64,000 nucleotides of DNA. Origin: Chloroflexota bacterium (lineage in GTDB: Bacteria > Chloroflexota > UBA5177). The notes under the pieces are model-generated. The model was not told the DNA's origin. It was given only the letters and a program-made list of their open reading frames with translations, and did not search any database. Location of the stretch: positions 8,480 to 72,479 of the forward strand of contig DATGJB010000057.1 of the NCBI GenBank assembly GCA_035295425.1, given 5' to 3'. The position numbers and the translations under genes were made by a program. Shown here one piece after another: positions 2,407-60,241 of the stretch (the stretch's first letter is position 1; each line of letters begins with the position of its first letter).

Positions 2407-3015
2407 TCAGAGGCGGCCAAGCGCCTCGCGGAGCGGTTGAGGCACGCGCGCCGGATCGAGCGCCTCGACCACCAGGCGCGCGTAGCGGATCTTGCGAGTG
2501 CCGCCGCTCCCTAGCCAGCGGCGCAGCTGGTTCTCGACCGGCTGTCCTCGCCACGCCGGCTCCTTCTGCAGGGTGTGAAAGGCGGCCAGCTCGCCCTGCG
2601 CCTCGATGATTGCCCGCATCGCATCGGCGCCCAACGACCGAATCAGCTCATCTTCGAGATCGACGGCACACGCATAGAAGCCCAGATCCTCCATGCCGGC
2701 ACGCGTCAGCGGGGAGCAGTCCGCCAATCCAGCCCGCTGCAGGGCGCGGCGGACCACGTGCTCTTCCCCGATGTCGTAGATGCCCGCGAGCCGCATGTTC
2801 TTTCCTTCAGCGTGGAGGAGATTGAGAACGCGTCCCAGGGCGTGCGCGCCGCCAATCGGGACGATGGTGACACCCTCGCGCTCGAGATTCCGGCCCAGGC
2901 GCGTGGCGGCTGTCTCCATCGCGATTTGATCGCTTACCCCCTCGACCAGCAGCACTGCCCGGGCATCGCCTGTGGTGAGCGTCGGCCGCCGGGCCGCATC
3001 CATCGCCCGCCTCAC
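2407..3015 (-). CDS. Hypothetical protein with a TOPRIM-like motif (OLD-nuclease C-terminal-like)
   Basis: 202 aa. VLLVEGVSDQIAMETAATRLGRNLEREGVTIVPIGGAHALGRVL resembles the acidic LVEG-S/T-D metal-binding core of TOPRIM domains. Codon usage is consistent. No other domain is recognisable by eye. Confidence 0.45.
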   Translation of the reverse strand: MRRAMDAARRPTLTTGDARAVLLVEGVSDQIAMETAATRLGRNLEREGVTIVPIGGAHALGRVLNLLHAEGKNMRLAGIYDIGEEHVVRRALQRAGLADCSPLTRAGMEDLGFYACAVDLEDELIRSLGADAMRAIIEAQGELAAFHTLQKEPAWRGQPVENQLRRWLGSGGTRKIRYARLVVEALDPARVPQPLREALGRL

Positions 3016-31734: not shown

Positions 31735-32345
31735 TGACCCAGGGAATGGGGCATCGCTTTCACGTCGATCGGTTGAACCTCCTCAAGGACCCCGAGCGCC
31801 GGCGCCGTATCCCGCCTGAGCCGATCCTTGAATCTGCCGGAATCAAACCGGGTGATTCGGTAATCGATGTCGGCGCCGGGACCGGATTCTGGACGGCGCC
31901 GCTGGCGCGGCTGGTTGGTCCAGAGGGGCGTGTCTTCGCCGTCGACGTCGAGCCCATCATGCTGGCTGAGATCCGGGACCTCGTGAAGGGTCAGCGACTC
32001 GAAGTGGTGGAAGTCGTTGCGTCGGATGACCATCACATCCCGCTCTCGGATGGTGAGGCCGATGCCGCCGTGCTCGGCTTCATGCTGCACGAGCCTCCTG
32101 ACCCGCCTCGCTTTCTCGGCGAGATAGCCCGGCTCTTGAAACCGGGTGGACGCATTCTGGTAATCGACTGGCACAAGCATCCCACCGAGCAGGGCCCGCC
32201 ACTGGAGCATCGGATCTCGGATGCGGAGGCAGAGGCCATGCTCCGCGCCGCGGGGTTCGAAGTCCAATCGCTCCCTGCTCCCAACTCAGATGTGTACGTC
32301 CTGCTGGGGCGCGGGGTACAGCCCCCCGCGGAACAAACCTTGTAG
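31734..32345 (+). CDS. Class I SAM-dependent methyltransferase
   Basis: Motif I VIDVGAGTGFWT, motif post-I VFAVDVEP, motif II/III LKPGGRILVIDW. Start MTQGMG at 31734 overlaps the upstream stop. Confidence 0.75.
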   Translation: MTQGMGHRFHVDRLNLLKDPERRRRIPPEPILESAGIKPGDSVIDVGAGTGFWTAPLARLVGPEGRVFAVDVEPIMLAEIRDLVKGQRLEVVEVVASDDHHIPLSDGEADAAVLGFMLHEPPDPPRFLGEIARLLKPGGRILVIDWHKHPTEQGPPLEHRISDAEAEAMLRAAGFEVQSLPAPNSDVYVLLGRGVQPPAEQTL

Positions 32346-32381
32346 CTTCCGGTCCTCGGCTGAGAGTTCACAGCTCATCCC

Positions 32382-34370
32382 TCATTCCACGAGCGCACTC
32401 CACTCTGCCAGGAGACTATCCAGCTCAGCCTGCGTCGCGGCGCACGACTTCGAGAGTTGTATCGCAGCGCCATAGTCTGAGCCGACATCCTGCAGCTGCC
32501 GGGTGTACTCGGCGAGCGCCGCCTCGGCCCGCGCGATCTGCTCCTCGACCGCCGCCAATAGCCGGGTGCGCTCGCGCGCCGCATTCGCCTCCGCTGCTGC
32601 TCGCTGCCGCTCCCTGGCCGGTTTCGAACCGTTCGTGAGCGCGGCGCTCGGAGAACCCGCCGGCTCGCGAACGGCCAGCATTTCGGCGTACGTCCCATCG
32701 AAGACGTGCAAGTGGCCGTCCCGTATCTCCCAGACCTGAGTAGCCAGCTCGTCCACCAGATAGCGGTCGTGCGACACCAGCAGAATCGTGCCGTCGAAGC
32801 GCTCCAGCCCCTCCTGCAGCACCTCCTGCGCCGGGATGTCGAGGTGGTTCGTCGGCTCGTCCAGTACCAGGAAGTTCACACCCTCCAGGGTGAGGATGGC
32901 CAGCGCCAGCCGGCTCCGCTCGCCGCCGCTCAGGCCGCCGACCGGCTTGAAGACGTCCTCGCCGCGGAAGAGGTACTGGGCCAGATAGCTGCGCGCCTCG
33001 CCGAACGACAAGTTCTTGTGCGTCAGCAGCTCGTCGAGCACGGTGTTCGCGCCGTTCAGGCTATCGTGCGCCTGAGCGTAGTAGCCAACCTTCAGGCTGG
33101 CTCCCAGCTGGACCTCGCCTGCCACCGGCGCCAGCTGGCCGATGACGGTGCGCAGGAACGTCGTCTTGCCCGAGCCGTTCGGTCCGAGTAGGGCAACCCG
33201 TTCCAGCCGCTCAACCTGCAGATCCCCTGCCTCGAAGAGGGTGCTACTTCCGTAGCCGACTCGAAGATTTCGGCAGCGCAGCACGATCTGTCCGCTGCGC
33301 CGCTCCGGCCGGAGCCGCACGTGAAGCTGTGCCGGCCGAACCAGGGGGGACTTGATGGCCTTGATCCGGCTGTATGCCTCCTCCACGCTCATCAGGGAGG
33401 GAGCGCGGATGCCGAGCTCGGCCCACCGCTTCCCCTGAATGCCAAGGACCCCGTGCGTCTCGATCGCCACAATCTTCCGGCCCAGGAGCTGGAGCTTCCC
33501 CTTGGCCTCCTCGAACTTCCGCCAGGCGATGTAGCGGCGAACCAGTTCCATGTCCGCGCGGAGGTTCTCCAGCTCCCGCTCGACGATCTCCCGGTTGCGC
33601 TCCCAGCGCTCCTGTCGCTGCTGCAGGTATGCGGTGTAGTTGCCGCGATAGCTCTCGAGGTGCGTAGGCGTCATCTCCCAGATGCGGTCCACCACGCGGT
33701 CCAGGAAGTAGCGATCGTGGCTCGCGACCAGGAGCGCGCCTTCCCAGCTCCGGAGCGTCCCTTCCAGCCACTCGATGGCCTGGACGTCCAGATGGTTGGT
33801 GGGCTCGTCGAGGATGAGCAAATTCGGTTGCTCCAGGAGGAGCCGGGCCAGCAGGGCCCGCGTCTTCTGACCGCCGCTCAGGTGGCTGATCGGTGTGCTC
33901 CATTGCTCTCGCGCGAAGCCCAGCCCTTCCAGTACGCGGCCGATGCGCGCCTCGTAGTCGTAGCCGCCGGCATGCTCGAACGCCTCGAGCGCTGCCCCGT
34001 ACTGATGCAGCAAATGGTCCGAACCCTCGCCTTCCGCCATGCGGGCTTCCATGACACGCAGCTGCTCTTCCTGCCCGCGCAGCGGGCCAAAGACCATCAG
34101 CATCTCGTCGTAGACACTGTTGCCGTGCCCGGTGAAGGCGTCGACCGCCTCCTGGCGCAAGTAGCCCAGCCGGGCGCCGCGGGCGATGTGCACGCTGCCG
34201 GCGCTGGGCGGGCCGATTCCCGCCACCGCACGGAAGAGCGACGTCTTGCCGACGCCGTTGGGCCCGACCAGCCCCACCTTGCCGTCGTTGGGCAGCTCGG
34301 CGCTGATACCACTGAAGATATCGCGGGCCCCGATGGTGAGGCCGATGTTCTGGATGCTGAGGATGGACAT
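32382..34370 (-). CDS. ABC-F family ATPase (two tandem ABC domains, no TM domain; Uup/EttA/ARE-type translation factor) with a C-terminal coiled-coil extension
   Basis: Two Walker A motifs (GPNGVGKTS, GPNGSGKTT) and two signature motifs (LSGGQKTRALLA, LSGGERSRLALA). A linker lies between the ABC domains. The C-terminal ~90 aa is Ala/Glu/Arg-rich and helical. Confidence 0.85.
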   Translation of the reverse strand: MSILSIQNIGLTIGARDIFSGISAELPNDGKVGLVGPNGVGKTSLFRAVAGIGPPSAGSVHIARGARLGYLRQEAVDAFTGHGNSVYDEMLMVFGPLRGQEEQLRVMEARMAEGEGSDHLLHQYGAALEAFEHAGGYDYEARIGRVLEGLGFAREQWSTPISHLSGGQKTRALLARLLLEQPNLLILDEPTNHLDVQAIEWLEGTLRSWEGALLVASHDRYFLDRVVDRIWEMTPTHLESYRGNYTAYLQQRQERWERNREIVERELENLRADMELVRRYIAWRKFEEAKGKLQLLGRKIVAIETHGVLGIQGKRWAELGIRAPSLMSVEEAYSRIKAIKSPLVRPAQLHVRLRPERRSGQIVLRCRNLRVGYGSSTLFEAGDLQVERLERVALLGPNGSGKTTFLRTVIGQLAPVAGEVQLGASLKVGYYAQAHDSLNGANTVLDELLTHKNLSFGEARSYLAQYLFRGEDVFKPVGGLSGGERSRLALAILTLEGVNFLVLDEPTNHLDIPAQEVLQEGLERFDGTILLVSHDRYLVDELATQVWEIRDGHLHVFDGTYAEMLAVREPAGSPSAALTNGSKPARERQRAAAEANAARERTRLLAAVEEQIARAEAALAEYTRQLQDVGSDYGAAIQLSKSCAATQAELDSLLAEWSALVE

Positions 34371-34432
34371 CGTTGTGCTCCTGGAAGTGGCTTCTGTCAG
34401 CTGCCCTCGATGGGCGGCTCCATTCCTAAACC

Positions 34433-34471
34433 ATGAAAAAAGGCCGCGGGATCGATCACTGTCCCACGGCC
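34433..34471 (-). terminator. Terminator-like hairpin plus U6 tract inside the 5' leader of the ABC-F gene (candidate transcription attenuator)
   Basis: Minus-strand RNA reads GGCCGUGGGA-CAGUGAUCGA-UCCCGCGGCC-UUUUUU (10-bp stem with one G-U pair), about 65 nt upstream of the ABC-F ATG. A 23-codon ORF (MMTPGGSGGASGSVCPRSLDITT) ends 24 nt upstream of the stem. Confidence 0.45.
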
Positions 34472-34820
34472 TGAGAAGTCTGAACGCTGGCGTCTAGGTA
34501 GTTATGTCAAGGCTCCGTGGGCACACTGATCCGCTCGCTCCGCCGGATCCGCCGGGCGTCATCATCGCGGTGCGGGGATCATACCCAGAATTCAAGACAC
34601 CTGTTCTCCAGGACCGCTTTTGTCGCGTCTCCCTACGATATACCAGATGGCGTACCGGCGCAACGAGCAGCGTACGCGCTCCCTCCAGAAGGCTCGCGCA
34701 CCGACGCCCTCGACGGGAAGCTTCGGTGCGCGCGAGACGTGCGCTGTAAATGGCGCATGAGCCGCTTTTCGACCCGCACGTTGAGCAAGTTCCTTCATCT
34801 GCCTCTTCTATTCTGGGGGT

Positions 34821-36677
34821 GTGATTACCTCTCCCTCCCGGACTGCTGACGTCGCGCGCTCATCACCGGATCGGGAAAGAACGCCGCACGAGGGACTCCT
34901 GCCGCTGGTGATCGGCGTCACCGGCCATCGCGACCTGCGCGCCGAGGACTGGCCGGCGCTCGAGGATCGCGTCTCCGCCATCCTCTCCGCTCTCAGCGAG
35001 CGCTACCCGCACACCCCGCTGATTCTGCTTTCCTCGCTCGCCGAGGGCGCCGACACGCTGGTCGCGCGCGCCGCGCTGGACCACGGGATGCGTCTCATCG
35101 TGCCGCTTCCCATGCGTCAGGACCTGTACGAAGCCGACTTCCAGGATGCAGCCGCTCTCGATCGCTTCCGCGAGCTCGTGGCACGTGCCGACCAGGTGCT
35201 CACGCTGCCGCTTCTGGCGAGCGAAGACGCGGTGCGAGCCGGCGGGGAGGCACGAGCCCGGCAGTATGAGCAGGTAGGCGCCTATATCGCGCTCCACAAC
35301 CAGATCCTCATCGCTCTCTGGGACGGTCGTTTCACCGGGCTGATGGGAGGAACCTCCGAGATCATTCGCTTCCGGCGCCACGGCGTGCCGCACCCCTACG
35401 CCAGCAGACGCAGCGCGCTCGACATCGCAGAGTCCGGTCCCGTTTACTGGGTGGTGACGCCACGCGTCCGGAATCCGAACCCCACCGCCGAGCCCTTTGG
35501 CGTCCAGGTGCTCTACCCACGCGACGCGCCACAGCCGATCTCAGACGATGACGAAGATGACGACAGGACGGAAAACGGATCGGCCGATCCGGACGCAGCT
35601 ACCGGCCGCTTTTACGATCGCCTTTTCCGGCACCTCGACACCTTCAATCGGGACGCGCTCCGGTTGGACTCGTCGCTTGCGGGAGAACGACAGGAGAGCC
35701 GGGGCTACCTGCTGCCCGCGGAGTGGAATGCCAATTTACCGGCCGAGCTCGAGGCGGTGGTTGCAACGCACGTGGTTGCGGACACGCTCGCCGTGTACTT
35801 CCGCCGGCGCACCCACCGGGTGCTGGTGTCGCTGCTCTCCCTGGCATTCCTTTCGGTCCTGTCGGTCGATCTCTACGCCCACGTGTCGGTCCACCTGACG
35901 CCGCTCCTGTATCTCTATCCGGCAGCGCTCGTGCTCGGCGTCGTTCTCTGGTACTTCTCGGTGAAGCGGCCCGACGTCCAGAACAAGTACCTTGACTATC
36001 GAGCCCTCGCCGAAGGGCTGCGCATCCAGTGTTACTGGCGAATTGCCGGGGTCACCGACTCCGTCGCCGAGCACTACCTGCGCCGGCAAAAGAGCGAGCT
36101 CGATTGGATCCGGAACGGGATCCGGGCAACCGATCTCACTCTTGGCAGAACACAGGAGCAGGAGGTGGCTCCCGACCCACGCCTCCCCGCTTTCGACCTG
36201 GTGCTGCGGTACTGGGTGGAAAGCCAGAGCACTTATTTCAAGCGGGCGGCGGTGCGCGAGCACAGGAAGCGCGAGCTGGTGGGGTTCCGTATCTGGGGGC
36301 TCTTCCTGCTGGGAATCGCTACGGCCATCAGCCTGTGCGCGCTGGTGGCAGCACTCACGCTCGCCGGCCTTGCCACATCCCGCTATGAGGCGGCGGAGAA
36401 CGTCCTTCTGGTCGTTTCCACCCTCTCGCTGGTCGGCGCGGCACTGTCCGAAGGCTACGCCGACAAGATGGCGTTCAGCGACCACTCTCGCCAGTACCGA
36501 CGCATGGGAGCGGTCTTCGACCGGGCGGAGCGGCATATCAGGGACGTGCTGGCGAAGGGTGAAACCCAGTCGGCGCACGATGCGATTCTGGAGCTGGGCA
36601 AGGAAGCGCTTGCCGAGAACGGCGATTGGGTGGCGCTGCACCGTGGCCGGCCGGTGGAAGCAGTGAAGGGAGCATAA
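34821..36677 (+). CDS. Uncharacterised two-module membrane protein: N-terminal DprA/LOG-like Rossmann (SLOG-superfamily) domain, acidic linker, C-terminal four-TM region (two 2-TM hairpins, SLATT-like)
   Basis: GGGGGTG SD before the ATG. N-terminal motifs VIGVTGHRDL, SSLAEGADTLVARAALDHGMRLIVPLP and ALWDGRFTGLMGGTSEII parallel the DprA motifs of the dprA gene in this window. The linker is DDDEDDD-rich. Four strongly hydrophobic helices follow (VLVSLLSLAFLSVLSV, LYLYPAALVLGVVLWYFSV, IWGLFLLGIATAISLCALVAALTLAG, VLLVVSTLSLVGAALS). That the CDS is real is likely; the functional call is inference. Confidence 0.7.
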   Translation: MITSPSRTADVARSSPDRERTPHEGLLPLVIGVTGHRDLRAEDWPALEDRVSAILSALSERYPHTPLILLSSLAEGADTLVARAALDHGMRLIVPLPMRQDLYEADFQDAAALDRFRELVARADQVLTLPLLASEDAVRAGGEARARQYEQVGAYIALHNQILIALWDGRFTGLMGGTSEIIRFRRHGVPHPYASRRSALDIAESGPVYWVVTPRVRNPNPTAEPFGVQVLYPRDAPQPISDDDEDDDRTENGSADPDAATGRFYDRLFRHLDTFNRDALRLDSSLAGERQESRGYLLPAEWNANLPAELEAVVATHVVADTLAVYFRRRTHRVLVSLLSLAFLSVLSVDLYAHVSVHLTPLLYLYPAALVLGVVLWYFSVKRPDVQNKYLDYRALAEGLRIQCYWRIAGVTDSVAEHYLRRQKSELDWIRNGIRATDLTLGRTQEQEVAPDPRLPAFDLVLRYWVESQSTYFKRAAVREHRKRELVGFRIWGLFLLGIATAISLCALVAALTLAGLATSRYEAAENVLLVVSTLSLVGAALSEGYADKMAFSDHSRQYRRMGAVFDRAERHIRDVLAKGETQSAHDAILELGKEALAENGDWVALHRGRPVEAVKGA

Positions 36678-36743
36678 CGGCGCACCATGACCGCTGACTG
36701 TGCGTCCGGGTGCAGTGGTCCAGCGGCGGTGTAGGCGCTCGTT

Positions 36744-37511
36744 ATGTCAGGAAGAGGACCGCGCACGCTGGTCAGAGCGCTGGCTGCCCTGTATCCCGAA
36801 CTCGAGGAGCCTGCCTTACTGATCGCAGCGGGGAAGGTGACGGTGGATGGTCGTGTTGTCCGCAACCCGGCCTCCATGGTTGGTCCCGGCTCGCAGCTTC
36901 ATGTGGTAGCGAGCGCGTCACTGCGCGGCGAGGCCAAACTGCGGGCCGCACTCGACACGTTCCGGATCCCGATGGCCGGACGCGTGGCGCTCGATGCCGG
37001 GGCTGCCGCCGGTGGGTTCACCCGGGTCTTGCTCGAGTACGGGGCGGCGCGGGTGTACGCGGTGGACGCGGGCCACGGACAGCTGCTGGGCAGTTTGCGG
37101 CAGGAGCCACGGGTCGTCAACCTGGAAGCCACCAATCTCGCCGATCTCACTCCCCTACTGGTACCGGATCTCATCGAGGTGGTGACGCTGGATCTTTCTT
37201 ACCTGTCACTTGCTGAAGCCGTCCCGCAGCTCGATCGGCTCCGGCTGGACGCCGCTGCCGACCTGGTCGCTCTCGTCAAGCCGATGTTCGAGCTGCATCT
37301 CGCGCAGCCGCCAGCGACATCCGATCGCGCCGCACTGCATCGAGCGCTGGCCCTCGCCGTCACGGGCATCGAACATGCCGGCTGGACGACGCTCGCGACG
37401 ATGGAATCTCCGGTACTCGGCGGCCGCGGCGCCTTTGAATTTCTGGTGCATGCCCGTCGCGGGCCGGCCCCGCCGGTCCGGGGGAATCGTGGGCGGGAGG
37501 ACCGGACCTGA
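36744..37511 (+). CDS. tlyA: TlyA-family rRNA 2'-O-methyltransferase (S4 RNA-binding domain + FtsJ-like MTase)
   Basis: N-terminal S4-like LIAAGKVTVDGRVVRNPASMV, then the MTase motif ALDAGAAAGGFTRVLLEYGAARVYAVDAG. Confidence 0.8.
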   Translation: MSGRGPRTLVRALAALYPELEEPALLIAAGKVTVDGRVVRNPASMVGPGSQLHVVASASLRGEAKLRAALDTFRIPMAGRVALDAGAAAGGFTRVLLEYGAARVYAVDAGHGQLLGSLRQEPRVVNLEATNLADLTPLLVPDLIEVVTLDLSYLSLAEAVPQLDRLRLDAAADLVALVKPMFELHLAQPPATSDRAALHRALALAVTGIEHAGWTTLATMESPVLGGRGAFEFLVHARRGPAPPVRGNRGREDRT

Positions 37512-59306: not shown

Positions 59307-60241
59307 CGGATTATGAGCCGCTCGCAGAGCACGACGGCGCCGAACAGAACGAGGCCCAGTACCGAGGCTGCCAGCATGGTCGACCAGAGGGAGACATTGT
59401 CGGTGTACTCACTCGCCAGCACGAGCGACTGGCCGATGCCGTGCGGCGAGCCGGATGGGAGCTCGGCGATGATCGCCCCCACCAGGCTGGCTGCCACGCC
59501 GATCTTGAGACCGGTGAAGAGGTACGGCAGGGCAGCAGGGAGGCGCAGCTTGAAGAAGACCTGCGCCGGTGTGGCGGCGTAGGAACGCATGAGCTCAAAA
59601 GCCAGTGGCTGCACCGATTGCAAACCCTTGTAGGTGCTGATCGTGATCGAATAAAAGGCCAGATACGCCGAGATCAACACCTCCGACCGCAACCCCAATC
59701 CGATCGATACGACGATCGCGGGCACCAGCGCCACGATCGGAATGGTCTGCGAGGCCACCACATAGGGGAGAAGTGAGCGCGCGAGGAGGCGGCTGCTCAT
59801 GAACATCACCGCGAGCAGGACGCCGATAAGCGCGCCCAACAGGAAGCCGAGCACCGCCACCCGGCCGGTCCAGCCGAGATCGACCCACAGGCCACCGTTG
59901 GCGTTGGGCGGTTGTCGAAGCTTGTCAAGGAAGTCGCCGATGGCTTGCACCGGTGTGGGGAGCTCGGGCTGCGACATGGTGAGCGATTGCCGGATTCGCT
60001 CGACAAGCGATGCGTGATTCCACTTCGCCGGGTTGATGTCCTGGCTTTCGACGCTCAGCGTCTTGTAATTGAAGTACGCGGCAAACGCGTACCAGAGAAT
60101 CACCAGGAAGACGAAGATTACCAGCGGGGGAATCACCGCGTCGAGCCAGCCCCGCAACCGACCGGGTTCATCACGCGAAGGAAGCATGTCCGGCACTGCG
60201 TCGCCCGGACCAGCCGCGAGCAGCGTCTCGGCCACGTTCAC
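59285..60241 (-). CDS. ABC transporter permease (NitT/TauT family, second subunit)
   Basis: 6 TM helices; coupled to the ATPase gene by a 4-nt overlap. Confidence 0.8.
   Translation of the reverse strand: MNVAETLLAAGPGDAVPDMLPSRDEPGRLRGWLDAVIPPLVIFVFLVILWYAFAAYFNYKTLSVESQDINPAKWNHASLVERIRQSLTMSQPELPTPVQAIGDFLDKLRQPPNANGGLWVDLGWTGRVAVLGFLLGALIGVLLAVMFMSSRLLARSLLPYVVASQTIPIVALVPAIVVSIGLGLRSEVLISAYLAFYSITISTYKGLQSVQPLAFELMRSYAATPAQVFFKLRLPAALPYLFTGLKIGVAASLVGAIIAELPSGSPHGIGQSLVLASEYTDNVSLWSTMLAASVLGLVLFGAVVLCERLIIRWRVEPE

Follow-up and report, generated by a model that had tools for sequence, protein, structure and literature searches.

A candidate ribosome-dependent transcription attenuator in the leader of a Chloroflexota ABC-F gene

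The locus and its terminator hairpin

A 64,000-nucleotide (nt) stretch of contig DATGJB010000057.1, from an uncultured Chloroflexota bacterium of the lineage UBA5177 for which only metagenome contigs exist, is referred to here as the window. It harbors a gene for an ABC-F ATPase of 662 amino acids (aa) on the minus strand (32382–34370), whose leader contains a short upstream open reading frame (uORF) followed by an intrinsic terminator. We consider it likely that a ribosome-dependent (leader-peptide) transcription attenuator controls this gene. The elements of the leader exist, recur in relatives and keep their pairing. We infer the rest, namely that the uORF is translated, that the position of the ribosome selects the fold, and what kind of signal induces the gene.

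The leader lies within a 450-nt divergent intergenic region (34371–34820), inside which no gene ends, and which the ABC-F gene shares with a plus-strand neighbor (34821–36677). On the minus strand the intrinsic terminator (34472–34436; segments 3 and 4 of the scheme below) reads AGGCCGTGGGA-CAGTGATCGA-TCCCGCGGCCT, followed by a run of U. Its 5′ arm GGCCGTGGGA (34471–34462) and 3′ arm TCCCGCGGCC (34451–34442) enclose the 10-nt loop CAGTGATCGA (34461–34452) and form a stem of 10 bp, including one G·U pair, with an additional closing A-U pair and a predicted folding energy of −20.5 to −22.1 kcal/mol. The T6 tract (34441–34436) ends 65 nt upstream of the ABC-F ATG (34370). The minus-strand reading agrees with a preliminary description of this DNA, made from its letters alone, which had placed a hairpin with a 10-nt loop and a U6 tract about 65 nt before the ABC-F start. 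As the upstream gene runs the other way, there is no gene for the hairpin to terminate. A role as terminator for the plus strand or for the upstream gene was ruled out, given that no plus-strand T-run follows the hairpin and the neighbor points away.

The window has a G+C content of 65% and holds 12 runs of five or more T on its two strands. In a custom scan for hairpins followed by T-runs, covering both strands of all 64 kb, the leader T6 was the only such run to follow a compact, regular hairpin; a standard terminator scan, which admits loops of 3–8 nt only, missed this 10-nt-loop hairpin. Canonical intrinsic terminators are nearly absent from the window, and the remaining hairpin candidates are long, irregular and probably intragenic. 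The organism seems to use canonical intrinsic terminators rarely, and the one in the leader thereby stands out.

A putative sigma-70-type promoter (34635–34663, minus strand), with the −35 box TTGCGC (34663–34658), a 17-nt spacer and the −10 box TATCGT (34640–34635), may drive the leader, with a predicted transcription start near 34628. Judged by eye, TATCGT, TATGGT or TAGTAC boxes, often after TGTG, stand at the same place before the uORFs of relatives. A strict consensus promoter scan returned no promoter in 32000–37000, the leader promoter included. The Shine-Dalgarno sequence of the ABC-F gene, AGGAG (34378–34382, minus strand), lies 7 nt before its ATG. A search against Rfam gave no match at E ≤ 10 in window positions 33500–35500. 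The window contains no tRNA or tmRNA genes, and a T-box or other tRNA-linked explanation was dropped on that ground.

The leader open reading frame

Read from a TTG codon, the uORF (34494–34595, minus strand) comprises 33 codons and a stop and encodes (L/M)NSGYDPRTAMMTPGGSGGASGSVCPRSLDITT. The preliminary description had given it 23 codons, MMTPGGSGGASGSVCPRSLDITT, running from ATG 34565 to TAG 34496–34494. That frame is real, and it stays open upstream of ATG 34565 as far as TTG 34595; the start is where the earlier reading probably fails. A Shine-Dalgarno-like GGAG (34606–34609, minus strand) lies 10 nt upstream of TTG 34595, and no such box precedes ATG 34565. TTG 34595 is preferred because of this box and because a length of 33 aa is like that of the uORFs in relatives; it is the most likely start, held with low certainty. 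The gap between the uORF stop and the terminator stem measures 22 nt, not the 24 nt first reported.

A precursor of a ribosomally synthesized and post-translationally modified peptide, or of a bacteriocin, was considered for this small frame with its GG motif and Cys-rich end, and was rejected. No conserved genes for modification or export accompany it, its neighbors change from locus to locus, and its conserved nucleotides are engaged in pairing with the terminator.

Mutually exclusive helices in the window

Minimum-free-energy folds of the leader predict three alternative helices. Segment 1 (34572–34601, minus strand; GGTGTCTTGAATTCTGGGTATGATCCCCGC), the 5′ strand of an anti-antiterminator, overlaps the TTG start and the first 8 uORF codons. 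Segment 2 (34505–34538, minus strand) is the partner of either segment 1 or the terminator 5′ arm and loop, and within it the antiterminator core GGATCAGTGTGCCCACGG (34532–34515) corresponds to uORF codons 22–27, GSVCPR. Duplex 1:2, the anti-antiterminator (34601–34572 with 34538–34505), has a predicted energy of −31.3 kcal/mol, which none of 500 dinucleotide shuffles attains, and duplex 2:3, the antiterminator, one of −28.0 kcal/mol, attained by 0–2 of 500. Helix 3:4, the terminator, stands at −22.1 kcal/mol. The three are predicted to be mutually exclusive, the antiterminator consuming the loop and 8 of the 10 nt of the terminator 5′ arm. Among the 8 partners tried, the cognate one gave the window its best 2:3 pairing. 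The search for an antiterminator advised in the preliminary description thus located one, in codons 22–27 of the uORF, and it, the anti-antiterminator and the terminator are each far more stable than shuffled sequences.

Masked folding was applied to the nascent RNA, taken from its presumed first nucleotide through the last one of the terminator loop, with a 27-nt ribosome footprint placed at each uORF codon. Without a mask, the RNA of the window stays in the 1:2 fold and the antiterminator does not appear. A 15-bp antiterminator is predicted when the P-site is at codons 1–9, 11–12 or 16–18; it is absent when the P-site is at codons 19–33.

Just 3′ of the antiterminator strand lies the motif TTGACATAA (34502–34510, minus strand), which in the window can lengthen the 1:2 helix through GGTGTC (34601–34596).

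Recurrence of the layout in the Chloroflexota

Scans of species-representative genomes and metagenomes yielded 160 loci, mostly from Anaerolineae, Caldilineae and Ardenticatenia, at 48–64% identity to the ABC-F protein of the window, and seven closer relatives (63–68% identity) were obtained through protein sequences. One homolog of 81% identity (P0009) is cut at its N-terminus. The identical protein is found on three metagenome contigs (Chloroflexota metagenome-assembled genome), with identical leaders that add no variation.

For comparison of upstream regions, 97 Chloroflexota orthologs with at least 45% identity and at least 250 nt of upstream sequence were retained. The same layout, consisting of promoter, uORF, antiterminator strand in the 3′ end of the uORF, terminator and ABC-F gene, is found directly upstream in 41 of them, a count that is somewhat biased in that 7 of the 8 class II loci (see below) had been picked for likeness to the window. 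The others comprise 20 orthologs behind an ABC-2 permease gene and 36 with other arrangements, including TATAAT-N6-9-ATG promoters. In the 41 loci with this layout the uORF has 15–38 codons. The layout is present in all seven closest relatives, though the flanking genes differ at every locus, and the leader thus travels with the ABC-F gene.

Two leader classes can be distinguished. In the Anaerolineae, a custom scan of upstream regions found a recurrent hairpin with the stem CGGCCACGG...CCGTGGCCG followed by T4-7. The order in these leaders is a promoter, a uORF of 14–38 codons ending in [L/F]SECAC-TGA, a spacer TGAC..TAG.TATACGCA, a first terminator (T1), often a second (T2), a ribosome-binding site and the ABC-F gene. 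Class II, to which the window and its seven close relatives belong, has the order uORF, TTGACATAA, (A/G)GGCCGTGGGACAG-loop-TCCCRCGGCC and a T-rich tail 40–85 nt before the ATG. Two loci, L045 and L120, are intermediate between the classes, with uORFs ending in ECAC[A/C]LLT-stop and the motif TTGACATAA. This motif is kept in these two loci and in all relatives of the window's clade (L084 and L165–L169 among those listed), its reading frame varying between loci. With the usual CCATGA, it provides stops in every one of the three frames over a span of about 16 nt. Local pairing with the antiterminator strand is possible for its Anaerolineae counterpart, TGAC..TATACGCA.

A covariance model, R1, was built from the Anaerolineae leader class. 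In the fetched loci it detects 33 leaders, each of them on the coding strand, and 32 of them stand directly before an ABC-F gene; the remaining one precedes a three- or four-gene operon that ends in ABC-F. Elsewhere in the window R1 gives a weak match (E=0.37) at 59690–59751 on the minus strand, a hairpin CGATCGTGGCGC..GCCCGCGATCG without a U-run that is probably a chance hit. Rfam yielded no match at gathering score in 15 related loci, the leader of L034 showing only a chance-level match to isrD. The leader family is unrelated in sequence to known ABC-F leaders and absent from Rfam. In the literature searched we found no report of ABC-F leaders in Chloroflexota, an absence that is no proof that none exists.

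Conservation of the reading frame and covariation of the helices

Several patterns point to translation of the uORF. Its stop codon is kept at one alignment position in all 27 aligned Anaerolineae leaders (TGA in 25, TAA in 2), in which the last Cys codon is only ever TGC or TGT and the Leu/Phe codon is free at its third base, with third bases within the helix fixed. In L171 a change from CCA to CCT retains Pro at the cost of one pair. Of 39 leaders, 23 have the uORF in their longest open frame, where chance would give 13, in a test that is only moderately discriminating, and a purine-rich Shine-Dalgarno-like box lies 5–13 nt upstream of most uORF starts. The peptides end in TTG[VDE]LCP-TGA in the window's clade, where the end of L166, GEVCPRHVDIMR-stop, matches that of the window, GSVCPRSLDITT-stop, and in [LF]SECAC-stop in the Anaerolineae. 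Their N-terminal and middle parts are not conserved and show no evident, specific hard-to-translate sensor motif.

Both helices that decide termination are maintained. T1 is 96.7% paired in the 27 Anaerolineae leaders and shows five covarying pairs in 30 cells. Its loop and top two pairs, GGCGCACTCC, find their complement in the closing codons of the uORF, GGAGTGCGCC. This antiterminator helix is 91.8% paired in the same leaders, with four pairs changed on both sides, compared with 33–61% in controls slid by 1–3 columns. Two-sided changes are seen in L099 (GGATTGCGCC/GGCGCAATC), L095 (GAAGTGCGCC/GGCGCGCTTC) and L117 (..GCACC/GGTGA..).

In class II the terminator stem is 96.6% paired in 8 relatives. 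The strand CTGTGCCCAYG and the variable part on its 5′ side pair with the entire 5′ arm CCGTGGGACAG as well as the loop, and the antiterminator core is 85% paired across 8 relatives versus 31–47% in slid controls. The part that binds the loop varies together with the loop: GATCAGTG/CAGTGATC in the window, GTACTG/CAGTAC in L165 and L171, CCTG/CAGG in L169 and GGTGTG/CATACC in L166. Insertions and deletions bar a single register for this part, which was judged by eye and by the energies of cognate and non-cognate duplexes; the window, L165, L166 and L171 each form their best antiterminator duplex with the cognate partner. The recurrence in 41 of 97 loci and the compensatory pairing lend support to the proposal, made in the preliminary description, of a conditional terminator coupled to a short leader ORF.

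The ABC-F protein and its operons

The ABC-F protein contains the Pfam domains ABC_tran (twice), ABC_tran_Xtn and ABC_tran_CTD. Its AlphaFold model (mean predicted local distance difference test score 84.7) has an arm, a pair of ABC domains and, at residues 586–661, a C-terminal coiled coil, with a linker formed by a helical hairpin (helices 245–282 and 286–311) and some 50 further residues before the second ABC domain. NF000355, a broad NCBIfam model of ribosomal protection-like ABC-F proteins, is matched with 440.7 bits against a cutoff of 380 over residues 4–540, which is not evidence of resistance.

The NCBIfam models for antibiotic resistance (ARE) ABC-F proteins stay below their cutoffs (score/cutoff: Msr 334/680, Vga 297/725, the producer type CarA/OleB/TlrC 280/800, Sal 274/725, OptrA 268/1450, CplR 254/780, Lsa 213/750), as do the housekeeping models (EttA 356/599, Uup 336/900 and 314/936, YbiT-type PRK15064 328/762, YheS-type PRK10636 275/917). 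In PDB searches the protein is 28–30% identical to EttA, Uup, YbiT and YheS versus 21–24% to VmlR, Vga, Sal, Lsa and MsrE. A Foldseek comparison of the AlphaFold model with the PDB gave TM-scores of 0.55–0.6 for all ribosome-bound ABC-F structures and thus no subfamily placement. The class of this ABC-F, called ambiguous at the outset, is still so, since no ARE, Uup or EttA model reaches its cutoff and fold comparison does not discriminate. By exclusion and by its ABC_tran_CTD domain, the protein is consistent with the YdiF group, a paraphyletic set of ‘unclassified’ ABC-F proteins that often carry a C-terminal extension (Murina et al. 2019, PMC6723617). Among the first 600 pattern matches in species-representative genomes, 579 encode relatives, and the ortholog seems to be widespread and vertically inherited in the phylum.

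In some Anaerolineales the leader appears to control an operon of an exporter and the ABC-F gene. In L029 (1–2710) a leader with promoter, uORF, T1 and T2 (158–272) precedes a drrA-like gene (494–1315), a DrrB-like ABC-2 permease gene (1740–2642) and the ABC-F gene (from 2711), so that it lies 2.4 kb upstream of ABC-F. The 3′ end of the same T2 stands just before drrA in L026 (1–143), where the leader is truncated. In the 20 orthologs with a permease gene directly upstream, the flanks are too short to reveal what precedes drrA. The apparent co-regulation of an exporter with ABC-F suggests a response to drugs or xenobiotics, of which it is not proof, and would also suit a response to stress.

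Proposed mechanism and alternative explanations

In the proposed attenuator, transcription from a promoter near 34640 would give a transcript of about 190 nt with the 33-codon uORF and four pairing segments, which could form the anti-antiterminator (1:2), the antiterminator (2:3) or the terminator (3:4) followed by U6. If the uORF is not translated, 1:2 and 3:4 would both form and RNA polymerase would stop at 34436. Smooth translation would place the ribosome on segment 2 (codons 22–27) during synthesis of the terminator, again with termination as the outcome. A ribosome held at the start codon or within the first 18 or so codons would cover segment 1 and leave segment 2 free to form the 15-bp antiterminator with the terminator 5′ arm and loop, so that polymerase would enter the ABC-F gene. 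Because a ribosome held early would thus lead through the antiterminator to read-through, impaired translation is predicted to switch ABC-F on, and its cause could be a ribosome-targeting drug or some other stalling.

Several observations weigh against this scheme. The transcription start, the translation of the uORF and the conditional read-through are all deduced from sequence; of the two uORF starts in the window, the ATG has no Shine-Dalgarno box and the TTG is only a guess. The uORF stop of the window lies 7 codons beyond its usual position, and a ribosome terminating there leaves segment 2 uncovered. The outcome of the unmasked fold varies with the 5′ end chosen. In the window's clade both strands of the antiterminator core are conserved and show no covariation, and in L167 and L168 the predicted antiterminator duplex is no better than shuffles. 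In the window R1 picks up nothing beyond the terminator, at E=0.39, and the two leader classes are not joined statistically, their homology resting on L045, L120 and the shared layout. The somewhat greater closeness of the protein to housekeeping paralogs than to classical resistance factors weakens an antibiotic reading of the signal. Finally, in L166, L169 and most Anaerolineae leaders the antiterminator is the default fold, which in those Anaerolineae leaders is predicted to yield only to a ribosome at the uORF end. Because the anti-antiterminator is not conserved in all relatives, it was left out of the family definition, and for the same reason the three-state scheme is firm only for the window and a few relatives. 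The feature modelled for the whole family is narrower: a ribosome at the end of the uORF would favor termination, and a lagging ribosome would favor read-through.

A different kind of explanation is that the uORF and hairpin form an independent small gene, for a small protein or a small RNA, with a constitutive terminator, and that ABC-F is expressed from a separate promoter downstream of the hairpin. The conserved C-termini of the peptides fit such a gene, as do the TATAAT- or TATCAT-like boxes between the first terminator and the ribosome-binding site in eight loci (L040, L043, L044, L047, L064, L112, L117 and L119) and the clear use of short or leaderless TATAAT-N6-9-ATG promoters by other orthologs. 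In the window, however, nothing resembling a promoter was found in the 65 nt that separate T6 from the ATG. The small ORF is always upstream of ABC-F and in the same orientation despite its changing neighbors, and the element precedes the whole operon in L029. The complementarity between uORF end and terminator, with its compensatory changes, would moreover be purposeless for a constitutive terminator, and we give this explanation very little probability. We give scarcely more to the view that the RNA senses a metabolite or a factor directly, as a riboswitch or protein-binding element to which the uORF is incidental. Sequence is indeed conserved outside the helices (TTGACATAA in the window's clade, TGAC..TAG.TATACGCA in the Anaerolineae), TTGACATAA is kept across different reading frames, and the fixed third codon positions within the helix indicate a constraint at the RNA level. 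Yet translation is indicated by the patterns of stop codons and wobble positions. The part upstream of the antiterminator strand is conserved in neither sequence nor structure, while an open frame with a start and a Shine-Dalgarno-like box is kept there; no conserved multi-helix core resembling a ligand pocket was found, and no Rfam family matches the window leader or the 15 related loci.

The signal itself could be internal. As a housekeeping feedback sensor, the leader would use the peptide, or the lag of the leading ribosome on it, to report translation capacity or ABC-F activity and so adjust the level of a core factor. The wide and seemingly vertical inheritance of the ortholog, its C-terminal coiled coil of the kind found in Uup/YheS/YdiF-type proteins (PMC6723617) and its somewhat greater closeness to EttA, Uup, YbiT and YheS than to Vga, Lsa, Msr and VmlR are in keeping with this, and vmlR is itself induced by ribosome-assembly defects and not by drugs alone (PMC9226507). 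Nothing in the sequence separates such sensing from drug sensing, however, and the linkage to a DrrAB-like exporter in some relatives and the NF000355 match point the other way. The variable N-terminal and middle parts of the peptides also offer no evident sensor motif. We hold a feedback sensor to be possible but doubtful. We regard it as rather unlikely that, instead of sensing drugs, the leader serves a core YdiF-like ABC-F throughout the phylum as a homeostatic sensor of translation capacity. Under that proposal, the lag of the leading ribosome on the leader peptide, possibly relieved by ABC-F itself, would set the level of the factor, and the peptide end (LCP-stop or SECAC-stop) and TTGACATAA would have specific pausing roles. 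If true, it would make this the first attenuator known on a housekeeping-type ABC-F and provide a handle on the physiological role of the subfamily.

Relation to known attenuators

The leader-peptide attenuator favored here is most likely of a known mechanistic type, in a family not previously catalogued for the Chloroflexota. As in attenuators of the vmlR, vga(A), msrD and lmrC type, a terminator lies between the promoter, here a putative one, and the ABC-F start, and a predicted antiterminator is exclusive with it; the dependence on the ribosome is modelled. A precedent exists in vmlR, an ARE ABC-F gene of Bacillus subtilis, for which the logic of uORF, anti-antiterminator, antiterminator and terminator has been shown by experiment (PMC9226507). 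The window leader resembles it in having a uORF in the 5′ leader, three alternative helices, a predicted release of the antiterminator by stalling and an ABC-F gene downstream. It differs in that the two share no sequence homology and belong to different phyla, and in that the uORF here is much longer (about 33 codons), with its own 3′ end forming the antiterminator strand. A NusG pause signal of the TTNTTT type was not identified in the window leader, and the ABC-F protein has a long C-terminal coiled coil and scores below the VmlR/ARE2-type and other ARE models.

The leaders of vga(A), msrD, lmrC, lmo0919/vgaL, are5sc and tiaA likewise combine a uORF with a premature terminator, and the antiterminator is favored when the ribosome on the uORF is blocked (PMC12421871; PMC8546547). 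The uORFs of the vga(A)/msrD/lmrC group have mostly 3–14 codons, and drugs are sensed either on the start codon or at a particular site of arrest (PMC12421871; PMC8546547), whereas the peptides described here have 15–38 aa and a conserved C-terminal end (LCP-stop or SECAC-stop) and precede what is apparently a core gene throughout the phylum. The uORF attenuator of whiB7/wblC in Actinobacteria responds to many ribosome-targeting antibiotics and to amino-acid starvation, as cited in PMC12421871. Compared by that description only, it is a similar case of a leader-peptide attenuator conserved across a phylum that would report general translation stress; it differs in controlling a transcription factor, not an ABC-F, and in the description available it bears no sequence relation to the present family. 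The four-segment logic (1:2, 2:3, 3:4) set by ribosome position is shared with the trp, his, leu and phe leaders. Here, in contrast, no single amino acid has its codons repeated in a conserved run, and the ABC-F gene that follows is not biosynthetic.

Much work has been done on the leader-peptide attenuators that precede ABC-F genes in Firmicutes and Actinobacteria, where they mark genes that answer to ribosome-targeting drugs. The present leaders may represent a new family of cis-regulatory RNA and uORF across Anaerolineae and related Chloroflexota, of which the window is a diverged member. They argue for induction by translation stress of this ABC-F subfamily, which is large and unclassified and belongs to a poorly studied, mostly uncultured phylum; some species would induce a DrrAB-like exporter along with it. 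The understanding of the attenuation mechanism itself is unchanged.

Additional features of the locus and its relatives

The product of the divergent gene (34821–36677) has 618 aa and no Pfam or NCBIfam family, with only a sub-threshold match to DUF4231.

Most Anaerolineae leaders (L027, L031, L034, L035, L036, L048, L053, L024 and L019) contain two tandem terminators with near-identical stems, about 40–130 nt before the ATG, and the window has one. The tandem stems change together, as in L024, where both read GGTCAC..GTGACC. It is possible that the 3′ arm of the first terminator pairs with the 5′ arm of the second, forming a cascade or a fail-safe.

A different arrangement occurs in L010, L025, L028, L039, L127, L057 and L058, where TATAAT lies 6–9 nt before the ABC-F ATG, for example GTTCGGTATAATCGCAGGCTATG, and the leader is absent. 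This suggests that these orthologs have leaderless or near-leaderless ABC-F mRNAs. In L038 it is the uORF ATG that lies close to a promoter box, 6 nt downstream of a TAGACT −10 box.

An ortholog of only 39% identity, L069, has in positions 2760–3005 a promoter, a short uORF (MVGGIVILQIEVR-stop) and a related terminator (GCCGTGGGCGCAG..) ending 23 nt before the ATG. A strand in this leader, ATGCGCCCATG, is complementary to the terminator 5′ arm. An extra C here provides a partner for the G that is bulged in the window's clade, which suggests an old origin of the leader element within the phylum.

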